A DNA stretch of 58,230 nucleotides from Candidatus Moraniibacteriota bacterium. GTDB taxonomy: Bacteria > Patescibacteriota > Minisyncoccia > Moranbacterales > UBA1568. The position numbers and the translations under genes are program-made. Shown piece by piece: positions 14,185-57,354 of this stretch (the stretch's first letter is position 1; each line of letters opens with the position of its first letter). The notes beneath the pieces are model-generated. The model worked only from the letters and a program-made list of their open reading frames with translations. It did not search any database and had not been told where the DNA came from. The stretch spans positions 1 through 58,230 of the forward strand of contig JAGOSP010000005.1 of NCBI GenBank assembly GCA_018062205.1. The letters are read 5' to 3'.

Positions 14185-14940
14185 TCAGCGATGTGCCTCC
14201 ATGGCAGCTCTCAGACGACCCCAATTATATTTCGGTTTCCAAACGACGCGCCCCTCGGCAATCGCCTGCGCCACCAGCGGATCATCCTGCTGATACTGAG
14301 GTGTCTCGCGTTCGATAACCCCCAGAATAGGAATTTCCTTATCATCCGACCCCAGAAATTCCGCCCTGAAAGGAAAGGATCGATTGATGGCGCAGAGGAT
14401 ACTAATGACCTGTCCCTTGGCCTGTTCGACAAGTTGTATGAGTGTACCGGTTGTACTCGCATTATTCACCAGCTCTTCACCGATAAACACCGAGGCTCCG
14501 GATTCGATAGCCCCCTCATATCGACCCAAGATAAGGCGCCCATCACCTGTCTTCTCGGCAAAAATCTGCCGGCACCCGATCTGCCGCGCTACTTCCTGAA
14601 AAAATTTCACTCCGGCCCACGGCGCCCCGATGATGATATCCGGAACCAAATTGGCTTCCCGCAACCGCTGCACCATCCGAAACGCAAAATATTCGAGCAC
14701 TGCCGGCCACATATCGGCCATGGCGAAATCGTAATACTCCAGGCCGACCCAGTGAAGTCCGGGTGCATACTTTTTGGTGTAACCAACAATCGGGCCAATC
14801 GGTATTCCGTTGGCGTCAACTGGACAACAGTAATACCCCTGGCAATTCCTGAGTATCTGAAAGGCATTCCCATCGGGCACGAGCAAGTGGGATCCATCTC
14901 TCTGATACGATTCGGAGCACGGTAGAATGATTCTGCTCAT
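14185..14940 (-). CDS. Phosphoribosyltransferase-like protein (type I PRT fold, atypical PRPP loop)
   Basis: VFIGEELVNNASTTGTL resembles the PRPP-binding loop, with EE in place of the usual DD. DIIIGAPWAGVKFFQEVA resembles the PRT hood/loop region. Confidence 0.6.
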   Translation of the reverse strand: MSRIILPCSESYQRDGSHLLVPDGNAFQILRNCQGYYCCPVDANGIPIGPIVGYTKKYAPGLHWVGLEYYDFAMADMWPAVLEYFAFRMVQRLREANLVPDIIIGAPWAGVKFFQEVARQIGCRQIFAEKTGDGRLILGRYEGAIESGASVFIGEELVNNASTTGTLIQLVEQAKGQVISILCAINRSFPFRAEFLGSDDKEIPILGVIERETPQYQQDDPLVAQAIAEGRVVWKPKYNWGRLRAAMEAHR

Positions 14941-42795: not shown

Positions 42796-44223
42796 TCATG
42801 AGCTTCGAATTCTCTTCCTACTGGCGAGAAGAACAATAATACCTGATGCCAAGACGGTAAACAGGGAACCTCCGATAATTGCTGGTGTGACCTTGTTTAA
42901 ATTTCCGTAGGCAAAAGTTGGAAGCCCGAATGACAGAGAAATCAGAATGCCCCAGAACATACCCGCTTCGTTCACTTCCTTACTGAGCAAGGTAATAATA
43001 GTTGGCAACAATGTTGATGCCCGTAATGTCCCATAGAACAAAAACAAGTAGAGGATAGTCAGCCCAGGGATGTTTGCAATCGCAATACCAACAACCACCA
43101 GCGCTACCATCGACCCCTTAGAGTAATGGGCGACGTCTTTCTGTTCATGCTTGTTTGGCTTCGTGATTGACAGCAAATCATGGCCAAACAGGCTCGAGAG
43201 AGACGCCAAGTTTGAATCCAACGTCGACACAAGACCAGCAAGTAGAAGATAGAGGAATGGGACTGCTACCCAGCCCGGCAAAATGCCCAAAACGACCTCT
43301 ATGTTCACTTGCGCTGGATTATTGATCTTCATACCTCCCCCGGCGGCTAAAAATCCAAGTATCGAGATAGAAAACGGAACTACAGCAAACAAAATCGCCG
43401 CCAAAAGAAACGCTGATTGTACTGATTCTTTCTTGACAGCGTATGCCCTTTGCCAAAAACTCTGATCACCAAATGGTCCAGAAAGCAACCCAATCGTTAC
43501 TGGAATCCCAAACGTATAAAACACGTTGAGACCATCACCAGAGAATAGGCTATCATACGTTCCGGACTTCCCATTTACTCCCTTCAGAACTATCTCAGGA
43601 CCGCCTCCAACTGAAACCGCCCATCCGACAATCGAGACTCCAATCACAAGCATTACCATCATCATCAAAAAATCGCTGATGATGGAAGCCCTTAACCCGG
43701 AGTACAATGAGTACCCAACTGGGATGATTGCTAAAAGAACTGTCACATAGAAATACGGGAGTCCGCTCATCGTAGAAATGATTTTTCCACCAGCCAACAG
43801 CTGCACTGCGAATGAGCAAGCTGCCAGGCCCCCAAATGCAACCAAATACACTCGTTGCACTCTGCGAGAGAAACGTTCCCGCATGTAGCCAGACATCGTG
43901 ATTCCATCAGGAAATAATGTGCGTAACCTTTTGGCGAAAAACGAGAATAAAACCAGACACCCAACATTCGGAACAAGAAACCAAAAAAGTCCAACCCAAC
44001 CCTGTGTATAGGATTTCTCCGCTGAAACAAAAAGGGCTGGAGCCCAAATCCAGGCTGCTGCAATTGAAACAGCAGCAGGAATCTTTGGAATGTTGCGCCC
44101 GGCAACAAGGAAACTCGACTTGGAAAAAACAAACCCCCGAGAAAAAATCCAGACGATGATCGACGAAAAAACCGCATACCCTACCAAGATAAGTAGTCCT
44201 TCCAAAGCGGAAAAGATTTGCAC
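42796..44223 (-). CDS. Sodium:solute symporter family transporter
   Basis: About 13 TM segments, SSF-like N-terminal pattern (FLVAGRNIP...). AAAGGAGG RBS before a GTG start. Confidence 0.75.
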   Translation of the reverse strand: MQIFSALEGLLILVGYAVFSSIIVWIFSRGFVFSKSSFLVAGRNIPKIPAAVSIAAAWIWAPALFVSAEKSYTQGWVGLFWFLVPNVGCLVLFSFFAKRLRTLFPDGITMSGYMRERFSRRVQRVYLVAFGGLAACSFAVQLLAGGKIISTMSGLPYFYVTVLLAIIPVGYSLYSGLRASIISDFLMMMVMLVIGVSIVGWAVSVGGGPEIVLKGVNGKSGTYDSLFSGDGLNVFYTFGIPVTIGLLSGPFGDQSFWQRAYAVKKESVQSAFLLAAILFAVVPFSISILGFLAAGGGMKINNPAQVNIEVVLGILPGWVAVPFLYLLLAGLVSTLDSNLASLSSLFGHDLLSITKPNKHEQKDVAHYSKGSMVALVVVGIAIANIPGLTILYLFLFYGTLRASTLLPTIITLLSKEVNEAGMFWGILISLSFGLPTFAYGNLNKVTPAIIGGSLFTVLASGIIVLLASRKRIRSS

Positions 44224-44274
44224 GATAATCCTCCTTTGAGCGAAAACAGGCTGAAAAAGAACTCCTGCACAAGA

Positions 44275-44303
44275 AATTTACAGGTTACTAGTGGCTATGT
44301 CAA
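44275..44303 (-). promoter_or_regulatory. Putative promoter of the symporter gene
   Basis: The minus strand reads TTGACA, a 17-nt spacer, then TAAATT. Confidence 0.45.
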
Positions 44304-44609
44304 GACGTATGCATACTCCAAGGCGAAAGAAATAGGTGGAGAATATAAATAGATAGATTGATTCAAGAATACTTTCTGAGTGGCCGGGATTTTAATCCAA
44401 TAAATATTGAGGCTCAAAGACGACCAAATATCCATGGGAACATCTCAATTACCAGAAACCAAATGTGATTTTCAGCACCCCCTCTCAGAAAGAACCAGGT
44501 TCTTAAATTTTAGGATCTACTAGCTCCTTTTTCATTAATTGATACCCTGTTTAAAATATCCTGAAACCATTCACTTCATTTGAAAATGCACTGATTGCAC
44601 TCTTGCAAA

Positions 44610-45275
44610 CTAAACAAGAGCATTGGTAAAAGAAACTCGAATAAAATCATCAAGAATGGGCTGTAATTGCTTTATCGAATCAGCCTTTTTAACTTTATCA
44701 AAATATATTAATCGCAATAATTCTGTTTTTGCCAATAAATCATCATCAAATTTTGCTTTCAAAAGAATTTCATCTGCTGCCTGCTGAAATGTACTCTCAA
44801 GAAAATCGGCATATTGAAACACATAAGGATAATCCGCTATCAAATCTTCGTTATATCCTAAACGCTTAAATTCACTTGCCTGCATTCTCTTCGCAGTATA
44901 TACACTCTCCTGAAGCATTACTCCAGTTGAAACCTCAAATCGAGCAACGGAGATCATCCTCATTATGCTATTAATCACCCTAAGTTTCTCTGATGATAAC
45001 CGTGCACTTTTTATTAATAATTCGCTCACCAAATCAGGTTTTGTTTCCTTAAAAATCCGATTATTCCAGTCCCATACCCAGTTAGGAAGGCTCTCTGGTT
45101 TCTCTGAAATGAGAAAAAAATCACTAAAAAAAAATTTTTTATACGATGGCCAATCAACAGAAAAACTACACAGAGTATCTTGAGTACAATTTTTTACAAA
45201 AACTAATGCAGGATAATTAGAACTAACTGCTAAAACCCTACTCGTCTGACAATCCAACAATACGCCATAGTTCAT
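44610..45275 (-). CDS. Hypothetical protein (221 aa)
   Basis: ORF 46 nt downstream of the PP-loop gene on the same strand. No recognisable motif. Confidence 0.5.
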   Translation of the reverse strand: MNYGVLLDCQTSRVLAVSSNYPALVFVKNCTQDTLCSFSVDWPSYKKFFFSDFFLISEKPESLPNWVWDWNNRIFKETKPDLVSELLIKSARLSSEKLRVINSIMRMISVARFEVSTGVMLQESVYTAKRMQASEFKRLGYNEDLIADYPYVFQYADFLESTFQQAADEILLKAKFDDDLLAKTELLRLIYFDKVKKADSIKQLQPILDDFIRVSFTNALV

Positions 45276-45321
45276 ATGAGAAAGCTTTAACCAAATGATC
45301 CAACCTGGCTACGGTAACGTT

Positions 45322-46410
45322 TTATATAAAATCATTATCAACATTACAATATTCACTCACATCCAAATCACGATAAAATTTCATTGATTCATCAATAAAA
45401 TTATATGTATCCTGCTGAAGGAAAACCGAGTACAATGAACCGCGCTTTATCTTATTGTCCCTATAATCAGCGTCTTTCGTATAATCAAAAATTATATCCT
45501 TACACACCCATTTGTATGTATTCCATTGATCTTTTATTTTTTTATCAGGATTATTCATGCTCCACAACTGGAAGTCTTCCGTATTGTAAAATTGGTTGCA
45601 ATAAGTCATCATGTAAGATAAGTCTATACGATTCACATTTCTCGGAGTCACGCGACAAATCATACGCATGAATACCGCTTGCCATTTGAGGGAAAAATTA
45701 ATCCACCAAAGATAATCCTGATTAGTTCTAATTTCAATTGGTGAGGATGATTTCAAGCGTTCAAATAACTCAATATAAAAGAACGCTCCCTTTTTTTCTT
45801 TAAGAATTTCAGTAAAAAATGTTTTAAACATGTCCTGACTATACGGTTGTTGGATAACAGATGGTCCAAATCTCAAAATCAACTTCCCCATCATATCGGA
45901 CCCGAAAAGCTGATCATTGTGCTCGCCACCAACAAACATTCGGTCTGTTCCCAAAAAATATGGGAATGCATTCACTGAATCTACCCGTAGCTTTCCTCGA
46001 ATATGATCTCGATAAAAATTTAAATTCTCGCGTATTGATTCTTCGGACAAAAGCACGATGAGATTTTCTTTTTGCTTTAAGGTTGCATTTTTGAGCAACG
46101 AAATCAAGAGGAGAGTGCTATCAATACCGCCAGAATAAAATACATTCAATGAGACACCAAGGGTGTCCGCTCTCACGAGCAATTCCCTGGCTCGTTCATT
46201 ACAAATCTCCTCGAATGTCTTCTTTATTGGTTTGAGAGCTGGTATTGGAAACAATGACTTAGTATAAAAAGGAAGTGTAATGGTATTCGTTCTATCTATC
46301 GGTACCACCGATGGATTATATATTTTAAAAAATTGCGAAAAACGATCAATTCCTGGAAGATGTGTGCATTGTCCGATTAAAATATTGGGATTGTAATAAA
46401 GAAAATTCAT
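45322..46410 (-). CDS. PP-loop (SGGxDS) ATP-pyrophosphatase superfamily protein, asparagine-synthase-C-like
   Basis: VFYSGGIDSTLLL PP-loop motif about 90 residues from the N-terminus. No glutaminase domain. Confidence 0.65.
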   Translation of the reverse strand: MNFLYYNPNILIGQCTHLPGIDRFSQFFKIYNPSVVPIDRTNTITLPFYTKSLFPIPALKPIKKTFEEICNERARELLVRADTLGVSLNVFYSGGIDSTLLLISLLKNATLKQKENLIVLLSEESIRENLNFYRDHIRGKLRVDSVNAFPYFLGTDRMFVGGEHNDQLFGSDMMGKLILRFGPSVIQQPYSQDMFKTFFTEILKEKKGAFFYIELFERLKSSSPIEIRTNQDYLWWINFSLKWQAVFMRMICRVTPRNVNRIDLSYMMTYCNQFYNTEDFQLWSMNNPDKKIKDQWNTYKWVCKDIIFDYTKDADYRDNKIKRGSLYSVFLQQDTYNFIDESMKFYRDLDVSEYCNVDNDFI

Positions 46411-46827
46411 ACTCTAGTACGTATGCATCAGCGACTTAATAATTAATCGTGATTCTGCATAAATATATTTCCCAGAAATCGGTACAGCAACTAATTCTAG
46501 AGTCGCCTTTTTAGCTTTGGAAAATCTCCCTGCATACAATCAACTTACTCTCCCGGAAAAAATTTTCAAGTGTAGAATGATGTAAATCCTAGCTCACAAA
46601 AAATCTCGTAATTTGTTCTTTTTTGTGGATCAGTTAATATATCGAAAAACATGTATTGATGCTTCTGATGCATTTTCTGGAAAGTAACACCGAATAGGTT
46701 CATCAATTAAAATTGTTCCTCATGGTATATACTGCCAAATCCTTCCAAAAAGCTCTTGTCTGCTCAATTTTATCACATTTCTCTTCATTCAACAAAAAGT
46801 TGCCCTCAGGTAAATGGTTGCACTTTT

Positions 46828-47880
46828 TTAAATCCCATAACACTTTCGATGATAAAATCTCATCATGTATTTACCGTATATACTCGTACTCATAAAACGA
46901 ATACGGTCGGCCTCAACTCTTGATCTTAACATCCTTCCTATAACTGGAAGTGAACCGTTTTTTGCCACCCGATAATCTAAAAAGGGAAATGCTGCAGCAT
47001 TTCGCATCTCAAACGCATCGCTCGATGGAACCAACAAAAGTGTTGCAGCGCTAGCAAGCGCTGTTACAAGATATAAGTTTGGGATAAATTCATAAGAGCA
47101 AGACATCGCATCCTTAAAAAGCTCTCCCGACGTCTCCGATGAAGTAAAGCTAACTTCTAATGATTCAAAATATCTCAACGCAGAAGCATATTGAACAGCG
47201 CTCCCCAAAAGATCAGGCGACAAATTACTACAATCATCTCTCCTTCGACATTAACGGCTCTTCGTATTGCATCGTCTGCTTTTTTGCAAAAAATACCGCT
47301 CTCTCGGTATCATACATTCTTGTGTCTATCGTATAATTAGGATAATCGAGTGATTCTCCTCGCAGCTTATCTTCAGTAATCATTCTATTGCAATACGCCA
47401 TTTGTGCATATCGGTACGACAAAGAAGCAAGGATAGATTCATTTGCATACCCATTCTTTTCCAGAATCTCTAGATAAGCCAGATAAATATACAGCCCCTG
47501 AACTGTATAATGAAATGGGTTTTTTCTTTCTAACCATTTCAAAATCTTTCGGACGCAAAATCTCAGCTTCTTTTAAAAAAACCAACTCTGTATGACTATT
47601 TACATAGTCATACAATTCATAAATATTTCCGCTGTTACTGTATTTTGAAAAACAAAATAGGCACCTTATTTTGTGTACTAATGACTTATGTTGTTTTTTA
47701 CATCATCTACAAAAAAACTTCTTGCAACATTATCATCAACAGACAAAAGCTCTATTCTTTCGATACAATTTCCTTCTAAGAATACATTCGTAATGAAAAA
47801 CGTAAGAAAAAAAATACGAAAAACAAGACTCGCCTCGTAAAAATCTTTCGGTTTTTAGACAGGAAAAAACATTCACACTA
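46828..47880 (-). pseudogene. Decayed tandem paralog of the 47916-49082 gene (multiple frameshifts)
   Basis: ORF fragments 46828-47223 and 47234-47542, plus an unlisted frame near 47560-47680 (SKYSNSGNIYELYDYVNSHTELVFLKEAEIL), align in order with the HRYSDTRGNVYEIYDYIQSRPHLAFIQAEADL..., YLAYIEVLKNHGY..., and NQYAAALRY... regions of the neighbour. Confidence 0.65.
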
Positions 47881-47915
47881 GGACAAAACAGGTACTCTTA
47901 TGAGACAGAGACTCT

Positions 47916-49082
47916 TCAACGAAAATCCTCCTCCGTCCATCCGTATCCTATTAACCACAATCTAAACGCGTGCACCCTACTTGCAAGTCTTGCAACATTT
48001 CGTTTACTATAAATATCTATTGCTTTCCGATCTTGAAATCGTGCATCAATAATATAATGGAGGATGCTCCCGTCTGAGATTTCGTCTTTTTTCTTAGTAA
48101 AGTTCAGAAATGGGTACAAAGCTTCTTTTATTTTTTGAGGATCTTCTGGATTCAGGATAACTAGAGTTGAAGCATTCAATATACCGGTGAAATACACTAA
48201 TTGGGGAACATTATTACGAGCATATTCTGTTGCAAAATCAAAAACTTCATCAGCAGTCTTCGGAGAACTATAGTCAGCGCCAACTGATTGTCGATATCGA
48301 AGCGCGGCTGCATACTGGTTCAATCCAACCAAAATATCTCTGGCGGGAAGATCCTTATCAGTTAATTCCCCATTCATTATTCTTACCACATCGTCCTTGG
48401 CGTAATCTGCGAACTGAATAGATTTCTCTATATCACGAGAAATGTACTTCGAAACAGCAAGGGCAGTCTTATCATCTTGTGCCATTTCACTCAAAATTAC
48501 CGTATTGAAATAAGCTGTTTTTGCATATTGATTTGACGCTGTCCCCAAACCTGCGATATCTATATAACCATGATTTTTAAGAACCTCAATATACGCCAAG
48601 TACGCATAACGCGTGTAATCGGTTCCCACCTCAACGGTACGATTTCTAATTCCCTCAAAAACGTCTGGATAAATTAAATCTGCCTCAGCTTGAATAAAAG
48701 CTAGGTGTGGACGACTCTGAATATAATCGTATATTTCATACACATTCCCACGCGTGTCCGAATATCTATGTACAATCCAGTAGGCATCAGCTTTCGTATG
48801 CTGATCATTCGTACCATTTTGTATATCGTCCGCAAAAAAGTTTTGTATCGCCTCTGGATTATTATGCAGCGTACTCTGTATCCAAGCCTCTTTACTCTCC
48901 CTTGCCCGTTCAGCTTCCTTTTCCTGCTCTCTTGGAATAAAAATAAAGTAATAGAAAATTCCACAAAACAAAATAACGACCAAAAAAACACCAAGAATAA
49001 TTTGTAGTATTTTTTTTCTTCTACTGATTTTTATTTTTTCCTCCATAATTATCATGCAAAAACTTACAAAATAAGAAAACAA
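47916..49082 (-). CDS. Membrane-anchored protein of unknown function (about 376-388 aa)
   Basis: N-terminal TM segment (ILQIILGVFLVVILFCGIFYYFIFI) followed by a helical soluble domain. The start could be Met1, Met10 or Met13. Confidence 0.6.
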   Translation of the reverse strand: MFSYFVSFCMIIMEEKIKISRRKKILQIILGVFLVVILFCGIFYYFIFIPREQEKEAERARESKEAWIQSTLHNNPEAIQNFFADDIQNGTNDQHTKADAYWIVHRYSDTRGNVYEIYDYIQSRPHLAFIQAEADLIYPDVFEGIRNRTVEVGTDYTRYAYLAYIEVLKNHGYIDIAGLGTASNQYAKTAYFNTVILSEMAQDDKTALAVSKYISRDIEKSIQFADYAKDDVVRIMNGELTDKDLPARDILVGLNQYAAALRYRQSVGADYSSPKTADEVFDFATEYARNNVPQLVYFTGILNASTLVILNPEDPQKIKEALYPFLNFTKKKDEISDGSILHYIIDARFQDRKAIDIYSKRNVARLASRVHAFRLWLIGYGWTEEDFR

Positions 49083-49115
49083 GATTCGCTCATTTTAGAA
49101 CCGACTTAACCCGAA

Positions 49116-49310
49116 TCACCCAGAACACCCCCCCGAGTCCCCTCCAGTAGGACCCCATTCCCACGCGGCTACATCCGCATGTGCAGTTGGGGTAAGCAAA
49201 GAGTCCTCTTTCAAGTCACCCCCCTTAAAATATCCGCTGATAACTCCTGCGAATCCAGCAACAAAAATACCTAGGAGAAACAAGATCTTCTTTTTTACTT
49301 TAAAAACCAT
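49116..49310 (-). CDS. 64-aa peptide, candidate precursor or substrate peptide
   Basis: MVFKVKKKILFLLGIFVAGFAGVISGYFKGGDLKEDSLLTPTAHADVAAWEWGPTGGDSGGCSG. Hydrophobic N-terminus and a Gly/Ser/Cys-rich C-terminus. Lies 106 nt downstream of the YcaO gene and has its own promoter. Confidence 0.5.
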   Translation of the reverse strand: MVFKVKKKILFLLGIFVAGFAGVISGYFKGGDLKEDSLLTPTAHADVAAWEWGPTGGDSGGCSG

Positions 49311-49361
49311 ATATATTATAGATTATTATCAATTTAATACTTAGCAATTTTAGTCAAATTT

Positions 49362-49390
49362 ATTATCGCAATTCGCATATCAATTGTCAA
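49362..49390 (-). promoter_or_regulatory. Near-consensus promoter directly upstream of the 64-aa peptide gene
   Basis: The minus strand reads TTGACA (49390-49385), a 17-nt spacer, then GATAAT (49367-49362). Confidence 0.5.
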
Positions 49391-49416
49391 GAATTTTGTA
49401 ACTTATTTCTGCATAT

Positions 49417-50934
49417 TTAAGAAAATCCATGAGGCAATGGGTTCAACTTCCAATCAGAAACATTCCGCGATTCTGCGAACTCTTGAAGTCTCTCGCTCTT
49501 GAATGTTCCGTATCCTTCAAATAAATACAATGGAAATGCTTTCGGAATATACACCTGCGCTACAAAGAACCCGAGTGTCTCCTGAATACTATTCTTTGGA
49601 TAATATACTACTGGGTAATAATCGCTCCCGAGTTTTTTTAATACCTTAAGGCACGTCTTCAATCGATTTTTATCATCCTGAATACACCTGAGATCATATC
49701 GACAGGCCTCTGCGTATGATACACATTTCCCGGAACAAAACCATTGAAAACGATCCACTCTCTCTTTTCCGTGCCAATAAAATTGTCGTGATATCTTATC
49801 TAAACGAGAAACAAATGGCTCAAATTCGGCTTCTGCATATTTTTGCCTCTCAACCGGATCTTTGTAGTAAAAAATTTCAATACCGATAATCATTTCTCTC
49901 AACGCATCTTGTATCGCCTCTTCTAAAGTCATCGCTGAGGCAGCTGTTATCGTGACTCCTGGAGTCTCTGACTCTGCATTCACTGCCGCGACAAGAACAG
50001 AGGGTATTGAAAGGGTAGTTGTGTGTAAAATAAAGAGAGATATCCCAATAGACTCAAAGACCTGTATCTGGTGCCTCAAAGAATCTGGGAGACTCTCCTG
50101 TAAAATAATTTCTGGTGGAATCGTTGTGAGCCAATGCACGAGAAATGCATCTCTCTGTACTACCTCAAGTAATCCCCGCAATACTGCCCCCTCCTTTGTA
50201 AAATAGCCAGCAGAACCATTGGTTGTCGCGTGAACAATAATTTTATCCCCAACTCCTCTCGGCTGCAACTGGGAACACCAAGAGGTAATATTAATCGGAA
50301 TATATGTTCTTTCTTGGGTAATTAAGTTTCTTCCTGTCACCCACGTTAATACGTCTGTTTGACTGTAGCGTAATTCAGGAAACCTCTCTTTTTGTTGATC
50401 CAAAAAACGATGGTATTTTGGTGGGTATATAACAGGAAATTTCTCCATCACCTCTTCTGGTGAAGCATTTACTACAAACGTATTTTTATCATAAATCCCC
50501 GATATCACCCTCTCAATTATTTCTCCAAGTGCTTTTGAAAGAGCTACTGATTTATCATTTGCTACGCCCTGTCCCCAAATAAGCAAAGTACGATTCTTAA
50601 AAGATATTTTTTTTGTTGAAAAATAAAAATAGTAGCCGGGATAATGCAAATCTCTTTCGGTTGCGACATCAAAAAACTGTTTCCTTCGAAGGTATTCGAG
50701 TAATACAGAGTACGCTGGACTTGTATCTTTCGAATGAAGAATAAAGAGAGACGCTGAAAATCGAGAGAATCGTACAAAGTAAGAGAGGAAAAAAAAATGT
50801 ACACGATCAATAATCCCAAGAGGAAGCTTCCACTTTCCACTCTTTCTCATGGAATTAATATCTTCCAAGTATTCCCGAACTGAGAGATATCCGGGTCTAT
50901 GAAATAATTCTGAATGAGTATACTTCTTCGACAT
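49417..50934 (-). CDS. YcaO-domain protein (SagD/cyclodehydratase-like)
   Basis: GQGVANDKSVALSKALGEIIERV, TTNGSAGYFTKEGAVLRGLLEVVQRDAF, and a Pro-rich C-terminal tail NPLPHGFS match hallmark YcaO blocks. Confidence 0.8.
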   Translation of the reverse strand: MSKKYTHSELFHRPGYLSVREYLEDINSMRKSGKWKLPLGIIDRVHFFFLSYFVRFSRFSASLFILHSKDTSPAYSVLLEYLRRKQFFDVATERDLHYPGYYFYFSTKKISFKNRTLLIWGQGVANDKSVALSKALGEIIERVISGIYDKNTFVVNASPEEVMEKFPVIYPPKYHRFLDQQKERFPELRYSQTDVLTWVTGRNLITQERTYIPINITSWCSQLQPRGVGDKIIVHATTNGSAGYFTKEGAVLRGLLEVVQRDAFLVHWLTTIPPEIILQESLPDSLRHQIQVFESIGISLFILHTTTLSIPSVLVAAVNAESETPGVTITAASAMTLEEAIQDALREMIIGIEIFYYKDPVERQKYAEAEFEPFVSRLDKISRQFYWHGKERVDRFQWFCSGKCVSYAEACRYDLRCIQDDKNRLKTCLKVLKKLGSDYYPVVYYPKNSIQETLGFFVAQVYIPKAFPLYLFEGYGTFKSERLQEFAESRNVSDWKLNPLPHGFS

Positions 50935-50952
50935 AAAACAATGTGCTCTTCC

Positions 50953-51708
50953 TTAAAAAAATAGCGTGTAAACAACTTTTTCATCCAAAGTCCCAAGTCC
51001 CATCATGCGCTCAGTCACGCTCTCATTGGTACCTCCAATCGGAATAATATTAATACATTTCTCCGTTCCTGCCAATAGCATATTTTGAGCTACATGACCA
51101 GCTTCAAGCAAAATATAGCGATATCCACGACTTCCGTATTTATCTGTAGTCCTTTCAAAAACGCTTGTCATGCAAATCATCCCCGTCGCACCACGCAAAT
51201 ATTTCCGAGGATTAATACTTGATCTATCCTCTAATGTGAATTCTCTACGAACAACAGGTTCAAGGGTATGCTCCTGTATCCCGTAATGATAAATGCCTGT
51301 CTGGAGCGAATCTACCGGCTTAAAAAGAAATACGTACATTTCAAGAGGATATCTCTTCCCAGCTGATGGGACAGTCCTATTTTCCTTTCGATATGATTCT
51401 TTTTTTGAACATCCTTGTAAACCATACCCACAACGGAGAACATAGGAAAGCATCGGTAGCGTGGACGCCGCAGGCTTATTATCAGAAAAATATTCTACAC
51501 TCGAACGACGCTTTGAAAGCATACTTTCAAAAAATACCCCGCTTGTTTGTGGCAAAGAAACTGGCTTCAACAGATGATACCTTTTATATTCAATCCGCTT
51601 CCATGCTTCCGGCCAATCCTGAGGATCCTTGGGTATTTTTACCGCACCTTTTTCTAATTTATCATTAGTCTCATGATGAAAAAAATTGAAGAGAAAAAAC
51701 AGGGACAT
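50953..51708 (-). CDS. SagB-type (McbC-like, nitroreductase-fold) dehydrogenase
   Basis: KRRSSVEYF, RTVPSAGKRYPLEMYVF, GIYHY, and ILLEAGHVAQNMLLAG motifs. Lies 18 nt upstream of the YcaO gene. Confidence 0.8.
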   Translation of the reverse strand: MSLFFLFNFFHHETNDKLEKGAVKIPKDPQDWPEAWKRIEYKRYHLLKPVSLPQTSGVFFESMLSKRRSSVEYFSDNKPAASTLPMLSYVLRCGYGLQGCSKKESYRKENRTVPSAGKRYPLEMYVFLFKPVDSLQTGIYHYGIQEHTLEPVVRREFTLEDRSSINPRKYLRGATGMICMTSVFERTTDKYGSRGYRYILLEAGHVAQNMLLAGTEKCINIIPIGGTNESVTERMMGLGTLDEKVVYTLFF

Positions 51709-51763
51709 AGTGTTGTTATTCTGATTTTTTAATCAAATCGAGTATTGTAAAAAATACTCACGC

Positions 51764-53419
51764 TCAATTCTGCATTTCATCTATTCTATAAAGTTCACAC
51801 ACATGCGTAGAAATGTAAAGAGTCCTCTTTCCCTCGGTCAAATACTCTATAGACACCCTATTCACAATTCTTTCGGTAAGCTGAATCTGGGAGAGCAACT
51901 TACCTGTATAGAGATCTAATTCGTAGAGTCTTCCATCATTGCTTCCAATAAACACACTCTCGGAACTCAATGTCGGACTTGCAAAAATCCGACCAGCAGT
52001 CTCAAATATCCACTCAGTTTTCTTGGTGATAAGGTTAAAACAATACACATTCTTATCCATCGATCCACTCACCACATATTCGTCCTTAATAAGAGGGGTC
52101 GAATAGAATCCAAATCGCGCCTCAAATTTATAAAAAAGCTTCCCGTTACTCGCATGAAGAACGTATAAGCCGCCATCCATACTCCCAAATAGAATAAGAT
52201 TTCGCTTTGAATCAAAAGCTGCTCCTTGCTTTATCATTCCGTCAGTTTTAAAAACCCAAGAAATATTTCCTTTTCTTTTGTTAAAAGCATAGAAACACTT
52301 ATCATCACAACCACAAAACACCAATTCGCTTTTCTTATCTATCACTGGGGAAGCAGATATTTTCCCTACTATCTCATAGTTTTTCCAGAGCACCTCTCCG
52401 GTTCTCACATCCAGAGCAACAATCCCACCTTGTTTTGAGGGAAGAGAAAACTCAAGCCCTATATAAACCACTCCTTGTGTATTATCGATACATGGTGATG
52501 AGCCAACCCAGTCAGCATCCATGTACACCCAGATACGCTTTCCTGAAAATCGGTCTAAACAATAGACATTTCCATCATATGCCCCAAACACCACACTATC
52601 TTTGTCTATTGCTGGGGACGAAAAAATTTGTTTCCCACGAAAACCAAAAAGTACTTTGTACTTCCACACGACATCACCATTATCTGCTCGTAAGCAATAC
52701 AAAAAGCCATCATCTGATCCTATGTATACGTATCCTTCCACAACAAGAGCGTTTGATTTTGATTCAACAGAATATAAATTTGGCTTGTCCGTGAGTCTTA
52801 CCTTATAGTTAATCGCATATTTTTTATTTGGAAATACAGCCCGATCCACAAGATTACTCACCGGTAAGACGTGTTTGAAGTCATCCAAATCGAAAATACT
52901 GACGACAGATATCCCTTGGTCAATCAAATCTTGATAGTATGCTTTATTCCTATACCGAAGACAGACGAAAACAGCCGCAACCTTAAGCCCGAGATCTTCC
53001 AAAATTTTTATTTGCTTCCGCATAGTTGTACCGGAGTTCAAAATATCGTCAACAAGAATAATTGGAAAATCAGGGGAAAGCTCCCCCTCAATCATATTTG
53101 CCAAATCACCCTTCTTGCGAGACTTTCTTATATAAAAACCACTCGCTACAATTCCGCCTTCCGCCTGCAATAAAACTCCCGCTACCAAAGGTATCGCTCC
53201 AACCTCCATGCCACCTATTTGCAATCGCCCTGGGTACTGATATCGAAAGGTTTTCCAAAAATATTCTGCGTATTCTTGTAAAAAAAACTTTGACAGACAT
53301 TGTCCTTTAAAATCAAAAATCCATTTTTCCATCTTACCAGTTGAAGCGAGAGAGATGGCTCGTATCTCATCTTCCTTGTACACTTTATCTCTGAGTATCT
53401 TAAATAAAATATCCGACAT
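51764..53419 (-). CDS. Fusion protein: N-terminal type I phosphoribosyltransferase domain plus C-terminal PQQ-like (BamB-like) beta-propeller
   Basis: PRPP loop FPIILVDDILNSGTTM. Then about 7-8 repeats such as VYIGSDDGFLYCLRADNGDVVWKY, VVFGAYDGNVYCLDRFSGKRIW, and VFIGSNDGRLYELDLYTGK. Confidence 0.8.
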   Translation of the reverse strand: MSDILFKILRDKVYKEDEIRAISLASTGKMEKWIFDFKGQCLSKFFLQEYAEYFWKTFRYQYPGRLQIGGMEVGAIPLVAGVLLQAEGGIVASGFYIRKSRKKGDLANMIEGELSPDFPIILVDDILNSGTTMRKQIKILEDLGLKVAAVFVCLRYRNKAYYQDLIDQGISVVSIFDLDDFKHVLPVSNLVDRAVFPNKKYAINYKVRLTDKPNLYSVESKSNALVVEGYVYIGSDDGFLYCLRADNGDVVWKYKVLFGFRGKQIFSSPAIDKDSVVFGAYDGNVYCLDRFSGKRIWVYMDADWVGSSPCIDNTQGVVYIGLEFSLPSKQGGIVALDVRTGEVLWKNYEIVGKISASPVIDKKSELVFCGCDDKCFYAFNKRKGNISWVFKTDGMIKQGAAFDSKRNLILFGSMDGGLYVLHASNGKLFYKFEARFGFYSTPLIKDEYVVSGSMDKNVYCFNLITKKTEWIFETAGRIFASPTLSSESVFIGSNDGRLYELDLYTGKLLSQIQLTERIVNRVSIEYLTEGKRTLYISTHVCELYRIDEMQN

Positions 53420-53499
53420 AATTCTGAAGAGAAAAAACGAAGACTTTCGATGGAATTAAGGTCAACACCATCAGAGTAGAATACCAAATAAATCGACTA

Positions 53500-53528
53500 T
53501 TGACAATAAAACATATCTGTGATATTTT
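53500..53528 (+). promoter_or_regulatory. Putative promoter of the lipoprotein gene
   Basis: TTGACA, a 17-nt spacer, then TATTTT. Confidence 0.4.
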
Positions 53529-53601
53529 CGAAGTACAGTTGGCTCAAAGACCAATTTTTATAAAGTAGATCTTTTACACCTACACCACAGGAGACGGCAA
53601 A

Positions 53602-54045
53602 ATGAAAAAGTATCTTATTGGAATCGCGTTGATCCCTACTCTCATAGCGGGATGCAGTACCCTACCCAAAGGTCAAACGACAGCTGCGGCAGAAAAGTTC
53701 GTGAATGAGCTTGTGGTGTCCGGCGTACCACAAGAATGTGCTCTTTTTTTCGGCGCATTTCGCGGGCGACTCGCCCGCGGATCAACGTCGCTGAAATGGC
53801 TCTGGGTAACGGACGTTACCCAGGATTGCAAGGTGAGAGCAGCTCTCCAGTCGGATGAAAATCCGCCACGAGAAGAAGAGCTGAGGAATGGGGCGATACA
53901 CAATGGCGTACTGTCATTCCATTGTGGGATGATATCCCCCAATACCGATTGCCGCTTCGAACGAAGCGGGGAGGATATCCACTTTAACGCTATATTCCCC
54001 GGGGATGGAGCCTCTGGGAATCGGGCCATCCTTGAAAGGATTTAG
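53602..54045 (+). CDS. Lipoprotein (147 aa), more G+C-rich than its surroundings
   Basis: CAGGAGA RBS. Signal peptide with lipobox LIAGC. A strong terminator lies downstream. Confidence 0.75.
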   Translation: MKKYLIGIALIPTLIAGCSTLPKGQTTAAAEKFVNELVVSGVPQECALFFGAFRGRLARGSTSLKWLWVTDVTQDCKVRAALQSDENPPREEELRNGAIHNGVLSFHCGMISPNTDCRFERSGEDIHFNAIFPGDGASGNRAILERI

Positions 54046-54204: not shown

Positions 54205-55065
54205 AAAAAGTGTCTGGAATGCGGTTCCTCTCACAACAAGAAGGACGGAAAACAAAGAAATATTCAACGGTACAAATGTCTCGTCTGCGATAAACGTTTT
54301 CAAAACGTAAAACAGCCGAAGAGGAGATATTCGGATCTTTGGAAGCAATATGTCTGGGATAAGCAGTCACTCGTACAGTTTGCCGAGAAGTATCAGCGAA
54401 GCCTCCCTTGTATTCAAAAGCAGCTCGGATTGGTTGTTCTCGAACAAGATCGCATCGATCCTCAGTCTCTCGTCTTCGTTGCCGATGTCTCCTTTTTCTC
54501 CCGTGGTAATGGCATGCTCGTGTTCCGGTCTCCGAGACTGAAGAGGACTCTCCTGTGGCGATTCGTTCAGGGAGAGAATCCGACGATGTACCGGGACGCG
54601 AGAAGAGAGCTCGAAGAGCAAAGTTTTATCTTCCTCGTCATCGTTCTTGATGGCAGGAGAGGTGCGAGAGCAGTGTTTTCGGACATTCCCATCCAAATGT
54701 GCCACTTCCATCAGAAAGCCCTCCTGAGACAGTATCTCACACTGAAACCGAAACTTCTCGCAAGACAAGAACTGCTTGCCATCAGGAGAACGCTCGCCTT
54801 CGTTCGTGAGAAGGCTTTCGGGAAACTCCTCGATGAGTGGTTCGGACGATGGGAGGATTTCCTTCGAGAAAAGACTCTCGAAAGTGATGGAAAACACTGG
54901 CACTACACGCACAAGAAAATCCGGTCAGCATATCACAGTTTGAAAAACAATCTCCCGCATCTGTTCACACTTCAAAGATACCCAGAACTCAAGATTCCGA
55001 ACACGACCAATTCCCTTGATGGATTTTTCAGCAAAAGGAAAACGCTCCATTCTCCCAAGAGGTAA
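54205..55065 (+). mobile_element. Transposase remnant (N-terminal zinc ribbon plus DDE-like core; lacks a start codon and appears C-terminally short)
   Basis: The open frame reads KKCLECGSSHNKKDGKQRNIQRYKCLVCDKRF (zinc ribbon as in IS1/IS1595-type transposases), then ...VFVADVSFF..., ...VIVLDGRRG..., ...QMCHFHQKA..., and ...IPNTTNSLDGFFSKRK. There is no ATG, GTG or TTG before 54430. Confidence 0.6.
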
Positions 55066-55181
55066 CCTCTATAGTCCATGTTGCTGCATAGAACGGATAT
55101 CCTCAAGATACTCCTTCAAAGAAATATACCCTAGCCAACAAAAAAGTTTGGACGGATCATTCATACTCTGCGCCTATTTCA

Positions 55182-55928
55182 TTACAAGAACAATGTATAG
55201 ACTATTCTTTCTTCAAGGGTACCCAATCCCATCATGCCCTCAATAACGTTTTCGTTCGTTCCCCCAACAGGAATAAGATTCACTCCTTTTTCTGTACCAG
55301 CCAACAACATATTCTGAGCAACATGCCCTGCTTCAAGTAACACGAATCGATAACCGCGGCTCCCATATTTACTTGTTGTCCGCTTAAACAAACCCGTCAT
55401 ACAAATCATCCCCCATGATTCGTATAAAAATTCTTGCGGTGAAATGGCCGCTATTTCTTCTTTTGAAAACGTCCGTTGAACGAGGATTTCTAAGGCGTGT
55501 TTTTTGACACCATAATGATAGATGCCTGCCCGCACACTTCCAATAGGCTTAAAAAGAAAAACGTAAATCTCCAAGGGATACCGTTTACCAGCTGATGGCA
55601 CAGTTCTATGTTCTTGTCGTTTTCCTAATCTTGAATCACCCTGAAGTCCATATCCACACCGCAACACAGAAGAGAGTTTTTCAATTGTCCACACATTATT
55701 ACCGAAGTGGGCTGTACTCGAACGACGCTTCAGTAATAGATCCCACAATCCACACTCGGTTTCTTGAGGAAGCGCTACTGGTTGAAATAAGTGATAGGTT
55801 TTATATTCAATTTTTTTCCATTCCTCTGGCCAATCACGAGGATCCTTAGGAACATTAACGAGACCTTTTTCTGATCGATCAACGGTTTCGTTATGAAAAA
55901 AAGCGTACAGAAATGATGGGTTTGACAT
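55182..55928 (-). CDS. Second SagB-type dehydrogenase (paralog of 50953-51708)
   Basis: Alignable end to end with the first copy. Shared blocks are RTVPSAGKRYPLE, LLEAGHVAQNMLLAGTEK, and MMGLGTL. Confidence 0.78.
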   Translation of the reverse strand: MSNPSFLYAFFHNETVDRSEKGLVNVPKDPRDWPEEWKKIEYKTYHLFQPVALPQETECGLWDLLLKRRSSTAHFGNNVWTIEKLSSVLRCGYGLQGDSRLGKRQEHRTVPSAGKRYPLEIYVFLFKPIGSVRAGIYHYGVKKHALEILVQRTFSKEEIAAISPQEFLYESWGMICMTGLFKRTTSKYGSRGYRFVLLEAGHVAQNMLLAGTEKGVNLIPVGGTNENVIEGMMGLGTLEERIVYTLFL

Positions 55929-55970
55929 ACGAGGTATTCTCTAATTTTTCTAAATACATGGTAACGAAGA

Positions 55971-56531
55971 TTACGGTTCTCTCATTCGATATAATTTACA
56001 AGTATGTGCTGGAACATACGAAAGTCTCTCCCCGTTGGAATCGTGCGCTATTTGTGTTTTATTCACTCTCCTTTCTGTGAATTGAAGACGAGACAGAACA
56101 GCTCCGGTTGCAATATCTAACTCATACAATCGTCCATCATTACTCCCAATAAAAAGACTCTCCTTATCTACTGCTGGATTCGCAAAAATACGTCCGGATG
56201 TCTCGAAAGCCCATTCCTTCTTTCGAAGAAAGAGATGAAAACAATAGACTTTCTTGTCAAGCGAACCCATGAGTACACGGTTACAGATAATAACTGGCGT
56301 TGAATATATCCCAAAACGTGCCTGAAACACCTGTTCTAATGTTTTTGTTTGTATTCGCAAGACATAGATACCTCCATCCATACTTCCAAAAACAACCCTC
56401 CCGCCACCCTCATCTATAGCTACCCCATATTTTATAGCACCTTTAGTTCGAAATTTCCATATAATAGTTCCTGTTTCTGCGTGGAATGCATACAAGAATC
56501 CATCATCACACCCGCATATCACCAGACCCAA
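55971..56531 (-). pseudogene. 5'-truncated paralog of the PRT/beta-propeller gene (propeller C-terminal about 186 aa only)
   Basis: Aligns with the last roughly 186 residues of 51764-53419 (CGCDD..YAF, FGSMDGG.YVL, FIGSNDGRLYELD). No PRT domain and no upstream continuation. Confidence 0.55.
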
Positions 56532-56598: not shown

Positions 56599-57354
56599 AT
56601 GATTCATTGTTTTCAAAAAATCTCTTTTTTTCGATTCATACAAAAAATCACTCTTGTAATCATATTCATTTTCATTTTAATACTCTTTTTCTATCCTTTC
56701 CTTTCTCTCGCTCTTGGAAATATCTTTTTCGGTGGCATCAGCCAAGTATACAATGTACGACTTGCGCAATTACTCTTCAAGCATGCTGCGTATCCAATTC
56801 TCCCAGTACAATCTCCGAACTACGCTCATTACCAGTTATCCCGCACCTATTTCATCCAAGGAAAACTCAGTGACACACTTGAAGAAGCGCATGAGGAACT
56901 TCGGATATATCCGAATAATACAAAGGCTTACTACATACTTGGTCTTACTCACGGCTATATGAACCAAACGTATGAGGCAATTGATGCCTTCTCTCTCTAT
57001 ATTGAAGCAAATCCACAAACATGGGCTGGGAGAAATGATAAAGCTTGGCTTCAATTTCGTATTGGTGATGTAGATGGAGCACTCGAAACGATACAACCAA
57101 TTATCAAGCAGTATCCAAAAACTCCTTGGGTACAAAATACGTACTGCGCTTTACTCATTAATAAACCAGACCGTCACGAAGAAGCGCTGACTGTCTGCAC
57201 CCTCGCAAAAGATCTCGCTGACAAAATGACCCCCCAAGACTGGGGTCATGCATATCCAGGAAACGATCCTCGTATATATGGAGAGGGACTCCAAGCAATG
57301 AAAGATTCTGCTACGCAAAATTTACGTATCATCAACGAAAAAAACCTTAATTAA
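56599..57354 (+). CDS. Membrane-anchored TPR-like repeat protein (251 aa)
   Basis: N-terminal TM segment (ITLVIIFIFILILFFYPFLSLAL). Helical repeats with a TPR-like pattern (AYYILGLTHGYMNQTYEAIDAF...). Confidence 0.6.
   Translation: MIHCFQKISFFRFIQKITLVIIFIFILILFFYPFLSLALGNIFFGGISQVYNVRLAQLLFKHAAYPILPVQSPNYAHYQLSRTYFIQGKLSDTLEEAHEELRIYPNNTKAYYILGLTHGYMNQTYEAIDAFSLYIEANPQTWAGRNDKAWLQFRIGDVDGALETIQPIIKQYPKTPWVQNTYCALLINKPDRHEEALTVCTLAKDLADKMTPQDWGHAYPGNDPRIYGEGLQAMKDSATQNLRIINEKNLN

Follow-up and report, generated by a model that had tools for sequence, protein, structure and literature searches.

A reduced-genome (CPR) bacterium, Candidatus Moraniibacteriota, carries a putative azole-peptide gene set in which a YcaO enzyme and a SagB-type dehydrogenase are accompanied by a phosphoribosyltransferase (PRT)/beta-propeller fusion protein that recurs with them in related genomes, and by a small Gly/Asp/Ser/Cys-rich peptide that is predicted to be exported and is their likely substrate. 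Given that YcaO plus nitroreductase "LAP" clusters were already reported in CPR genomes (Sharrar et al., 2020; PMC7298704), the azole core is not new. We found no description, however, of the fusion protein, of this type of precursor peptide, or of the membrane-anchored protein whose gene nearly always follows the peptide gene. The window analyzed here is a 58,230-nucleotide stretch (contig JAGOSP010000005.1, assembly GCA_018062205.1, positions 1 to 58,230), and its relevant features are as follows.

51764-53419, minus strand: PRT-propeller fusion protein (551 aa)
50953-51708, minus strand: SagB/McbC-type FMN dehydrogenase (251 aa), the presumed azoline-to-azole oxidase
49417-50934, minus strand: YcaO cyclodehydratase (505 aa), stand-alone
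49362-49390, minus strand: sigma-70-like promoter match upstream of the peptide gene
49116-49310, minus strand: putative precursor peptide (64 aa)
47916-49046, minus strand: n388, a membrane-anchored, probably extracytoplasmic helical protein (376-388 aa)
46828-47729, minus strand: fragmented paralogue of n388, a likely pseudogene
44610-46410, minus strand: n362 (45322-46410) and n221 (44610-45275), a possible accessory gene pair
56599-57354, plus strand: membrane-anchored TPR protein (251 aa)
55033-56531, minus strand: decayed second cassette
54430-55065, plus strand: IS256-family (Zn-variant) transposase fragment

The first-pass annotation of four co-directional minus-strand genes was confirmed, with gaps of 55 nt (fusion to SagB), 18 nt (SagB to YcaO) and 106 nt (YcaO to peptide), and with the YcaO blocks (GEIIERV, NGSAGY...LLEVVQRDAF) and the SagB blocks (RTVPSAGKRYPLE, LLEAGHVAQN) all present in the translations. 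It omitted a fifth co-directional gene (n388) and the decayed second copy of the cassette. Its interpretation as a RiPP-like system with a distinct YcaO partner architecture is only partly supported. Peptide modification, the absence of a canonical partner and the linkage of the fusion gene to YcaO/SagB are upheld, whereas the novelty of the core, the universality of the link, the inventory of parts and the designation of the region as accessory need correction. Profile searches, which had been proposed beforehand as a check, support all four domains: PF02624 for YcaO (128.8 bits, cut-off 25.7), TIGR03605 for SagB (100.5 bits, cut-off 78.4), PF13570 for the propeller (213 bits, cut-off 133) and PF00156 for the PRT domain, the latter only at its threshold (27.0 bits, cut-off 26.3).

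The YcaO has no fused E1-like or RRE domain. Its ATP/Mg2+-binding motifs are intact, ExxER and E..RD being conserved in 27 homologues, with the glutamates invariant, but the curated SagD-family model TIGR03604 scores below its cut-off (134.9 against 219.25 bits), indicating a divergent clade. The AF2 model (pLDDT 90.6) is closest in fold to the azoline-forming heterocyclases MusD and LynD (TMq 0.65 over about 460-480 columns). The cyanobactin heterocyclases LynD, TruD and MusD (TMq 0.65-0.66) are the best structural matches, yet they carry fused N-terminal RRE and E1-like domains and are about 750-780 aa long, the window protein corresponding to the YcaO domain alone. A Pro-rich C-terminus is characteristic of azoline-forming YcaOs (PMC8442711). 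The family consensus here, conserved in 27 homologues, is LNPxPH(M/P)F(S/P), with P501 and H502 invariant, and a homologue in locus L016 (L numbers denote related loci) ends in NPYPHPFP, although the window protein ends in a partly degenerate NPLPHGFS. For SagB, PDB sequence hits include BmdC, McbC and CyaGox, and K190-Y191 aligns with the catalytic K201-Y202 of McbC.

It could alternatively be argued that this YcaO forms thioamides or amidines rather than azolines, as its best PDB sequence hit is the thioamide-forming M. kandleri YcaO (E 2.9e-7), TIGR03266 gives a weak hit, and rhodanese genes recur in related loci. We consider this very unlikely. No TfuA was found in the window or among the recurrent neighbours in related loci, a SagB dehydrogenase with a KY motif is co-encoded, the fold is closest to MusD and LynD, the family has the Pro-rich C-terminus that is partly degenerate in the window protein, and the rhodanese proteins are membrane-anchored and absent from the window.

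The fusion protein consists of an N-terminal OPRT-like type I PRT domain (about aa 1-200) and a C-terminal 8-bladed BamB/PQQ-like beta-propeller, without a signal peptide (AF2 model, pLDDT 89). The nearest solved PRT structures are OPRTs, which share the flexible loop IRKSRKKGDLANMIEG and the PRPP loop ILVDDILNSGTT, the latter with the acidic pair followed by a Gly/Thr-rich phosphate loop of type I PRTs. Within these loops, which correspond to (V/I)RKxxKxxGxxxxIEG and VDD(V/I)xxxG(T/S) of orotate phosphoribosyltransferase, R98, K99, K103, D124 and D125 are invariant in 21 homologues. The nearest curated models are PyrE, but all of them score below their cut-offs (TIGR00336, 48.1 against 106.8), and the PRT subfamily, unlike PyrE, occurs almost only fused to a propeller and is located here in a peptide-modification cluster. 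The propeller matches BamB in a Foldseek search (TMt about 0.8), BamB being a protein-binding scaffold and not an enzyme. The window protein differs from BamB in that it is cytoplasmic, lacks a lipoprotein signal, fails the equivalog model (TIGR03300, 110.9 against 285.2) and comes from an organism with no sign of a BAM machinery. It also fails the PQQ-dehydrogenase models (TIGR03075, 70.2 against 480).

The fusion belongs to a large CPR family. Of 33 fusion-anchored loci with at least 3 kb of flank on both sides, 23 have YcaO within 7 kb and 20 have SagB, SagB and the fusion gene abut or overlap in 9 loci, and at least four gene orders keep the genes clustered. The link is not universal, as about 30% of fusion genes have no YcaO within 7 kb, several of these loci still carrying Cys-containing peptides, and some YcaO loci (L084, L087, L088) show no fusion gene nearby. 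In other genomes the PRT-propeller scaffold is fused to Asp beta-hydroxylase (AspH; three times), to a sulfotransferase and to a formyltransferase, and one of these fusions sits next to a Cys-free Asp/Gly-rich peptide. L107 encodes PRT-propeller-AspH followed by an Asp/Gly-rich peptide and a C3-like protein (C3 being the homologue family of n388 in other CPR lineages), and in L090 a radical-SAM-propeller protein lies near the YcaO and fusion genes. These fusions lend indirect support to the first-pass suggestion that the propeller is the substrate-binding module.

The peptide ORF is real, as homologous small ORFs with the same architecture occur in more than 40 related loci and in none of 21 control loci. 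The family has 43 members, each with a Lys-rich N-terminus, a membrane helix, a conserved A-x-A-[D/E] junction and a microcin-B17-like Gly/Asp/Ser/Cys core, and no Pfam or NCBIfam family covers it. In the window peptide, a 20-aa hydrophobic helix and a linker are followed by an AHA|D junction and the core DVAAWEWGPTGGDSGGCSG. Across the family, cores contain G 32%, D 17%, S 16% and C 7%, with a median of 7 Ser+Thr per core. Cys is present in 39 of 43, and in about half of cases it is preceded by Gly, as in microcin B17. Cores carry more Cys where YcaO is in the locus (median 3 against 1.5; one-sided Mann-Whitney p = 0.009, not corrected for phylogeny). The strongest promoter-like match in 47.7-53.8 kb lies in the 106-nt gap upstream of the peptide gene (TTGACA-17-GATAAT with a TG extension, 11 of 12 positions). 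This is a consensus match only, and the total number of promoter-like sites in the region is no higher than in shuffled sequence.

As the first-pass annotation had noted for the window, no E1-like, Ocin-ThiF-like or TfuA partner was found there. Among window ORFs of 195 aa or more, none gave a ThiF/E1, TfuA, ABC-exporter or C39-protease hit, ten of these ORFs matching no Pfam or NCBIfam family at all. Nor did an E1-like partner, TfuA, exporter or leader protease recur in about 100 related loci (79 + 26 examined for recurrent neighbour families), although several neighbour families have no annotation and a very divergent partner cannot be excluded. The missing exporter and protease may be explained by the peptide itself, which has a signal-anchor-like N-terminus and the A-x-A-[D/E] junction. 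Its flank charges (+5 on the N-flank against +1 on the C-flank) fit an N-in/C-out orientation, and SecA is encoded in the window.

Given these observations, we contend, at about even confidence, that this is an azole-forming RiPP cassette of the linear azol(in)e peptide (LAP/TOMM) kind with an unusual third enzyme and an unusual precursor. In this view, the 64-aa precursor is made in the cytoplasm and, being so short, probably leaves the ribosome before it can be targeted to the membrane. YcaO would then use ATP to cyclodehydrate the core Cys residues, and perhaps Ser/Thr, to azolines, which the SagB-type flavoprotein would oxidize to azoles. The PRT-propeller protein would take the place of the missing E1-like/RRE partner, its propeller binding the precursor and presenting it to the enzymes while its OPRT-like domain still binds PRPP and either adds a further modification or regulates the complex. 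The signal-anchor helix would send the peptide through the general Sec/YidC route, N-terminus in and C-terminus out, where it may be cleaved at the A-x-A-[D/E] junction and act outside the cell together with n388. It counts against this view that the junction lies a median of 20 residues after the helix, which is long for a classical signal-peptidase site, and that a hydrophobic leader might be inserted into the membrane before cytoplasmic enzymes can act on the core. The analysis itself establishes the domain identities, catalytic motifs, gene linkage, peptide family and domain fusions, whereas azole formation on this peptide, propeller-peptide binding, PRPP use, export and cleavage are inferred from sequence and predicted structure alone.

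A partner is not obligatory for azoline formation, as stand-alone YcaOs that need neither an E1-like nor an Ocin-ThiF partner are known from bottromycin (PMC8442711). That pathway uses a follower peptide, has no SagB-type oxidase next to its YcaOs and involves no propeller or PRT protein. The cassette could accordingly be an ordinary partner-independent LAP cluster in which YcaO and SagB alone mature the peptide, the fusion gene being only a conserved syntenic neighbour with an unrelated cytoplasmic role. The incomplete linkage described above is consistent with this, as is the strong synteny of CPR genomes, in which other housekeeping-like neighbours (S10, EF-Tu, SecD) recur at these loci, and the earlier survey did not mention this gene. 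We regard this reading as unlikely, since the clustering survives several rearrangements and spans deep CPR lineages, SagB and the fusion gene often overlap, the fusion gene keeps its association with the peptide and n388/C3 pair even where YcaO is absent, the scaffold is fused to peptide-tailoring enzymes, and the PRT subfamily exists almost only in fused form.

Another possibility, also doubtful, is that the PRT-propeller protein is the primary modifying enzyme of the acidic Gly-rich peptide, for example by PRPP-dependent phosphoribosylation, with YcaO/SagB, AspH, the sulfotransferase and the formyltransferase as interchangeable tailoring modules. The fusion gene and the peptide/C3 pair do co-occur more widely than YcaO does (L006, L013, L015, L018, L019, L023, L025-L027 and L107), the PRPP-binding and catalytic-loop residues are invariant, and the fused tailoring domains vary. 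However, we know of no precedent for PRPP-dependent peptide modification, no acceptor atom is identified, PF00156 scores only at its threshold, and YcaO could lie outside the 7-kb flanks where it was not seen, as it is 4-6 kb away in L016, L021 and L055. It can be speculated further, although we consider it improbable, that the OPRT-like domain attaches ribose 5-phosphate from PRPP to a heterocycle made by YcaO/SagB or to one of the many Asp carboxylates. The product would be a peptidyl-nucleotide-like RiPP, the propeller a new, RRE-independent class of leader or substrate receptor that recruits interchangeable tailoring enzymes, and the leader would double as a Sec/YidC signal anchor.

A small-molecule pathway was also considered, in which YcaO (cyclodehydration), SagB (FMN oxidation) and the OPRT-like domain (phosphoribosylation) would mirror PyrC-PyrD-PyrE and make a nucleotide-like heterocycle in organisms that lack de novo nucleotide synthesis, the peptide being unrelated. 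In many loci the gene order ycaO-sagB-fusion matches that reaction order, the OPRT-type motifs are conserved, and the cassette is widely conserved in reduced genomes. This is nevertheless very unlikely, as the Cys/Ser/Gly-rich peptide family is tightly co-located with the enzymes, the YcaO has the peptide-azoline-type fold and, as a family, the corresponding C-terminus (partly degenerate in the window protein), SagB has the azoline-oxidase KY motif, and the propeller and its fusions to protein-modifying enzymes such as AspH would be left unexplained.

Among known systems, the window cassette is very probably one of the LAP cluster population surveyed with antiSMASH by Sharrar et al. (2020, mBio; PMC7298704), who found 110 clusters in 93 genomes, 89 of them with the nitroreductase. 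Shared features are a YcaO next to a nitroreductase-type dehydrogenase, with a short Ser/Cys-containing precursor beside YcaO, in Parcubacteria and Microgenomates. That paper describes YcaO, a nitroreductase and a peptidase, and makes no mention of a phosphoribosyltransferase-propeller protein, a signal-anchor type leader or a paired membrane protein. In the microcin B17 synthetase McbBCD with precursor McbA, a YcaO (McbD, which the window YcaO matches in fold) and a KY-motif FMN dehydrogenase (McbC) likewise act on a Gly-rich core, in which Gly-Cys and Gly-Ser become azoles. In contrast, the cassette has no McbB-type E1-like scaffold with an RRE, no McbEF exporter and no TldD/E-type processing, its family of cores is strongly acidic, and its leader is a membrane helix followed by the A-x-A-[D/E] junction.

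The cassette has more parts than the first-pass annotation listed. The n388 gene is paired with the peptide gene in nearly all loci, and its product is homologous to the C3 family (hhalign 97.3%, E 2e-11) but has no Pfam, NCBIfam or PDB sequence match. Its fragmented paralogue was found by tblastn as pieces at 47729-47523 and 47214-46957, with ORFs split into 102 aa and 131 aa, while intact tandem n388 pairs occur in L002, L048 and L081. The TPR protein (TPR Pfam hits) is a recurrent divergent neighbour of the fusion gene, with homologues in 24 of the fusion-anchored loci, often adjacent to it. The n362/n221 pair, a possible further component, recurs beside the cassette in L020, L031, L036 and L081 and beside a distant YcaO in L098; n362 has an SGGIDS PP-loop-like motif, but PP-loop hits are only very weak (E about 0.1) and there is no PDB match.

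The term "accessory region" is only partly apt, as GC is lower here and an IS fragment and pseudogenes are present, yet the cassette is widely conserved across CPR classes. The decayed second cassette has the same gene order and comprises the C-terminal 186 aa of a fusion paralogue (55971-56531), an intact SagB2 (55182-55928; 62% identical to SagB, 103.6 bits on TIGR03605) and a 40-aa remnant of a second YcaO (55033-55152). It is truncated by the IS256-family transposase fragment, for which NF048019 scores 201.9 bits over profile positions 86-277 of 304.

All four ORFs proposed in the first-pass annotation are located on the minus strand at the stated coordinates, with gaps of 55, 18 and 106 nt between them, and the observation is confirmed. 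Profile searches, which had been named beforehand as a test, supported the assigned domains. The YcaO protein (505 aa) scored 128.8 bits against PF02624 (cut-off 25.7), although it failed TIGR03604, the SagD family model (134.9 against 219). The SagB protein (251 aa) scored 100.5 against TIGR03605 (cut-off 78.4), and the fusion protein (551 aa) scored 213 against PF13570 in its propeller (cut-off 133) and 27.0 against PF00156 in its phosphoribosyltransferase (PRT) domain (cut-off 26.3). The nearest curated relatives of the PRT domain are PyrE models, all below their cut-offs, and the peptide matches no Pfam or NCBIfam family. The window otherwise holds housekeeping genes typical of a small genome, namely SecA, RpoA, S4, Mur ligase, MurG, FtsW, TrmD and an aminoacyl-tRNA synthetase, and close homologues of the cassette proteins carry CPR/Patescibacteria names. 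An Rfam scan of 43-58 kb revealed no RNA family.

The region contains more than the four genes initially listed, including a fifth co-directional gene that follows the peptide gene and a decayed second copy of the cassette upstream. The features in and around the cassette are as follows.

44000-54000: region in which the GC content falls to 0.36-0.41, against 0.41-0.50 in the rest of the window
44610-46410: the gene pair n362 and n221, belonging to no known family, downstream of n388
46828-47729: fragmented paralogue of n388, split into ORFs of 102 and 131 aa, downstream of n388
47916-49046, minus strand: n388, a protein with an N-terminal membrane helix, encoded after the peptide gene
49390-49362, minus strand: the best promoter-like site in 47.7-53.8 kb, in the gap upstream of the peptide gene (11 of 12 positions with a TG extension; a consensus match only)
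53602-54045, plus strand: 147-aa ORF with a lipoprotein-like signal (LIAGC), divergent from the fusion gene
54367-56531: decayed second cassette, comprising the last 186 aa of a fusion paralogue (54% identity), an intact SagB2 (62% identity, KY motif kept) and a YcaO remnant
55033-55152: the 40-aa remnant of the second YcaO (52% identity)
54430-55065: IS256-family (Zn-variant) transposase fragment that truncates the second cassette

A membrane-anchored TPR gene sits divergently next to this second cassette. Related loci (numbered here with the prefix L) contain counterparts of several of these elements. Intact tandem n388 pairs occur in L002, L048 and L081, and longer homologues (260-375 aa) of the lipoprotein-like ORF sit inside or beside the cassette in L002, L007, L016 and L058. 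The n362/n221 pair recurs beside the cassette in L020, L031, L036 and L081, and beside a distant YcaO (26% identity) in L098. The n362 protein carries an SGGIDS PP-loop-like motif. We considered it as a PP-loop adenylating partner, but only hits of E about 0.1 and no PDB match were obtained.

On sequence and structural grounds the enzymes look competent. The YcaO family, based on 27 aligned homologues of 35-61% identity, keeps the ExxER and E..RD motifs and a C-terminus LNPxPH.F, and a Pro-rich C-terminus is described as characteristic of azoline-forming YcaOs (PMC8442711), although the C-terminus of the window protein is partly degenerate. The AF2 model is confident (pLDDT 90.6) and superposes best on MusD and LynD (TMq 0.65-0.66 over about 460-480 columns), so that the whole 505 aa corresponds to a heterocyclase YcaO domain with no room for a separate E1-like or RRE domain. 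An RRE in the N-terminus was rejected on this basis and because the predicted order of secondary structure is not the beta-beta-beta-alpha-alpha-alpha of an RRE, though it is not formally excluded. In SagB, K190-Y191 aligns with K201-Y202 of McbC, the catalytic pair. The fusion protein model is likewise confident (pLDDT 89), with its C-terminal part predicted as an 8-bladed BamB-like propeller and its N-terminal domain aligning with OPRT structures, with which it shares the flexible catalytic loop (IRKSRKKGDLANMIEG against VRKEAKKHGMQRRIEG) and the PRPP loop (ILVDDILNSGTT). R98, K99, K103, D124 and D125 are invariant in 21 homologues of 42-62% identity, and PRPP binding is therefore likely to be retained.

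A scan of one genome per species with the fusion protein returned 591 confirmed relatives (tblastn E <= 1e-3), and of the 80 best kept, about 60 are full-length fusions, nearly all in CPR MAGs. Among 33 loci with at least 3 kb of flank on both sides, YcaO is present in 23 (within 3 kb in 19) and SagB in 20, and in 9 loci SagB abuts or overlaps the fusion gene. Gene orders differ, with fus denoting the fusion gene, pep the peptide gene and C3 a distant homologue of n388: fus-sagB-ycaO-pep-n388 as in the window, C3<-pep divergent from ycaO-sagB-fus, sagB-ycaO-pep-n388-fus (L091), and fus-ycaO or ycaO-fus without sagB in between (L005, L033, L047, L090). Clustering that survives rearrangement argues for functional coupling rather than inherited synteny alone. 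Of fifteen close YcaO relatives from metagenome contigs, however, the fusion gene is present in five and is not seen in L084 (6 kb upstream available) or in L087/L088, while the remaining contigs are too short to judge. The link is therefore strong but not obligatory.

Pfam and NCBIfam scans of the larger ORFs of the window found no E1-like, TfuA, exporter or protease gene, in agreement with the first-pass annotation. Similarly, none of the recurrent neighbour families in the related loci carries a ThiF/E1, Ocin-ThiF or TfuA domain, although several of these families are unannotated. The annotated ones are a membrane rhodanese, a DsbA-like thioredoxin, a UbiA-type prenyltransferase and an AMMECR1 protein. 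The last is a protein of 633-645 aa containing an AMMECR1 domain, which lies divergently next to the fusion gene in three loci (L014 1582-3483, L015 5031-6938 and L016 4930-6867) and is fused to a YcaO domain in a 977-aa protein in L040 (12537-15470). Membrane-anchored rhodanese, DsbA-like thioredoxin and Cys-rich secreted proteins recur around the fusion and peptide genes in Paceibacteria-type loci (e.g., L023 2629-3096, L041 2328-3035, L013 9002-10231 and L019 2346-3242), which hints at extracytoplasmic thiol chemistry, but none of these genes is in the window.

The peptide represents a real, conserved family. A small ORF of the same build precedes the n388 gene or its distant homologue C3 on the same strand, with a gap of -3 to about 40 nt. 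The n388 and C3 families are related (hhalign 97.3%, E 2e-11), and neither matched a Pfam or NCBIfam family or a PDB sequence. A pattern scan found such peptides in 31 fusion loci and in none of 21 control loci that hold unrelated propellers, and more turned up next to YcaO in metagenome loci. The 43 peptides have a hydrophobic helix of 14-24 residues, a linker with a median of 20 residues, a junction A-x-A-[D/E], most often AHAD and frequently followed by (V/A)P, and a core with a median of 40 residues (range 19-98) composed of G 32%, D 17%, S 16%, A 8% and C 7%. Cys occurs in 39 of 43, preceded by Gly in about half of cases, and the core resembles that of microcin B17 but is acidic. The N-terminal flank carries a median net charge of +5 against +1 after the helix, which by the positive-inside rule fits an N-in/C-out orientation. 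No NCBIfam or Pfam model covers the family, and two of 23 members hit the YxzE-like putative bacteriocin family weakly. Cores have more Cys where YcaO is in the locus (median 3 against 1.5, one-sided Mann-Whitney p = 0.009, not corrected for phylogeny), but this is a statistical tendency and did not yield a clean rule that no Cys in the core means no YcaO. A 271-aa relative of the precursor in L021 (1168-1983, plus strand) has a Hint/intein-like domain, starting at Cys and ending in VHN, inserted between a leader with an AHAD junction and a second ASAD plus Gly/Asp/Cys-rich tail.

Three observations point to the fusion protein as a substrate-presenting hub. First, the fusion gene stays with the peptide and n388/C3 pair even where YcaO is not within 7 kb (L006, L013, L015, L018, L019, L023 and L025-L027). 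Second, the PRT subfamily is essentially confined to this architecture: although a word-indexed search with the PRT domain alone was uninformative, returning only 3 hits because few candidates were collected, an exhaustive search of 1.84 billion representatives gave 295 clusters at E <= 1e-10, and the best 150 are nearly all 530-580 aa with the PRT domain at the N-terminus. Third, the scaffold is recurrently fused to tailoring enzymes, as seen in PRT-propeller variants (numbered with the prefix P) that carry an Asp/Arg beta-hydroxylase (P0089, P0401 and P0396), an Stf0-type sulfotransferase (P0391) or a formyltransferase (P0269). The contig encoding P0089 (L107, 1636-3897) reads TPR, PRT-propeller-AspH, an 84-aa Cys-free Asp/Gly-rich peptide and a C3-like protein, and an Asp hydroxylase next to an Asp-rich substrate is a coherent pairing. 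Also, an 872-aa protein joining a radical SAM domain to a PQQ-like propeller is encoded about 2 kb downstream of ycaO-fus in L090 (5428-8046). BamB-type propellers are protein-binding scaffolds, but that the propeller binds the precursor here remains an inference.

Given these results, the first-pass interpretation, in which a distinct YcaO partner architecture uses the propeller as its substrate- or peptide-binding module, is supported in part, and we place about even confidence in our own preferred explanation, an azole-forming pathway with the propeller protein as hub. The analysis itself establishes the identities and motifs of the enzymes, the gene linkage, the peptide family and the domain fusions, whereas azole formation on this peptide, binding of the peptide by the propeller, use of PRPP, export by Sec/YidC, cleavage at A-x-A and extracellular action together with n388 are all inferred. 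A weak point is the median of 20 residues between the helix and A-x-A, which is long for signal peptidase I, and the junction may instead be a recognition element or a site for another protease. It can also be speculated that the peptide is modified in a PRPP-dependent manner; we regard this as unlikely on present evidence, although it is not excluded. PRPP-dependent peptide modification is, to our knowledge, undescribed.

LAP clusters comprising YcaO, a nitroreductase, a peptidase and a short precursor were reported in CPR genomes, with 110 clusters in 93 genomes, 89 of them with the nitroreductase (Sharrar et al., 2020). The azole-forming core in CPR is therefore already known at annotation level, and the azole core is ordinary. 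Literature searches for YcaO with phosphoribosyltransferase, propeller or BamB returned nothing relevant, and we found no paper that mentions such a partner, this precursor type or the n388/C3 partner. The system would work like microcin B17 synthesis, but it fails one defining feature of the canonical LAP/TOMM machinery, the E1-like/RRE partner, and also falls below the SagD model cut-off.

The conserved PRT-propeller protein, as a putative hub, and the signal-anchor precursor are unexpected. Current models of YcaO biochemistry rest on E1-like/RRE or TfuA partners, and a conserved, structurally unrelated partner, here a propeller fused to a predicted PRPP-binding domain that recurs fused to other tailoring enzymes, would add a new way of recognising substrates. 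CPR bacteria are uncultured epibionts with minimal genomes, and that hundreds of species keep a five-gene cassette for an inferred exported, acidic, azole-bearing peptide suggests a role in host or competitor interaction, or in metal binding. Using a general-secretion signal anchor as the leader would explain how a minimal genome does without a dedicated exporter and protease. The system is also compact enough to be amenable to heterologous expression.

Distant PRT-propeller homologues (27-32% identity) occur outside CPR (L052, L060 and L067), including one in a cultured Sphingomonas (L060 6872-9211, Sphingomonas sp. Leaf198), and have no YcaO, SagB or peptide nearby; the Sphingomonas strain could be an experimental handle on the fusion protein. 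Two further ORFs of the window lie away from the cassette.

14185-14940, minus strand: separate 251-aa protein with a weak PyrE-like hit (TIGR01367, 50.5 bits against a cut-off of 150), a second atypical phosphoribosyltransferase in the same genome
57757-58173, minus strand: 138-aa Pro/Gln/Ala-rich ORF without a family hit, containing an internal direct repeat in which MVPVLAHPQEFAGPAQPQPYPAG occurs twice
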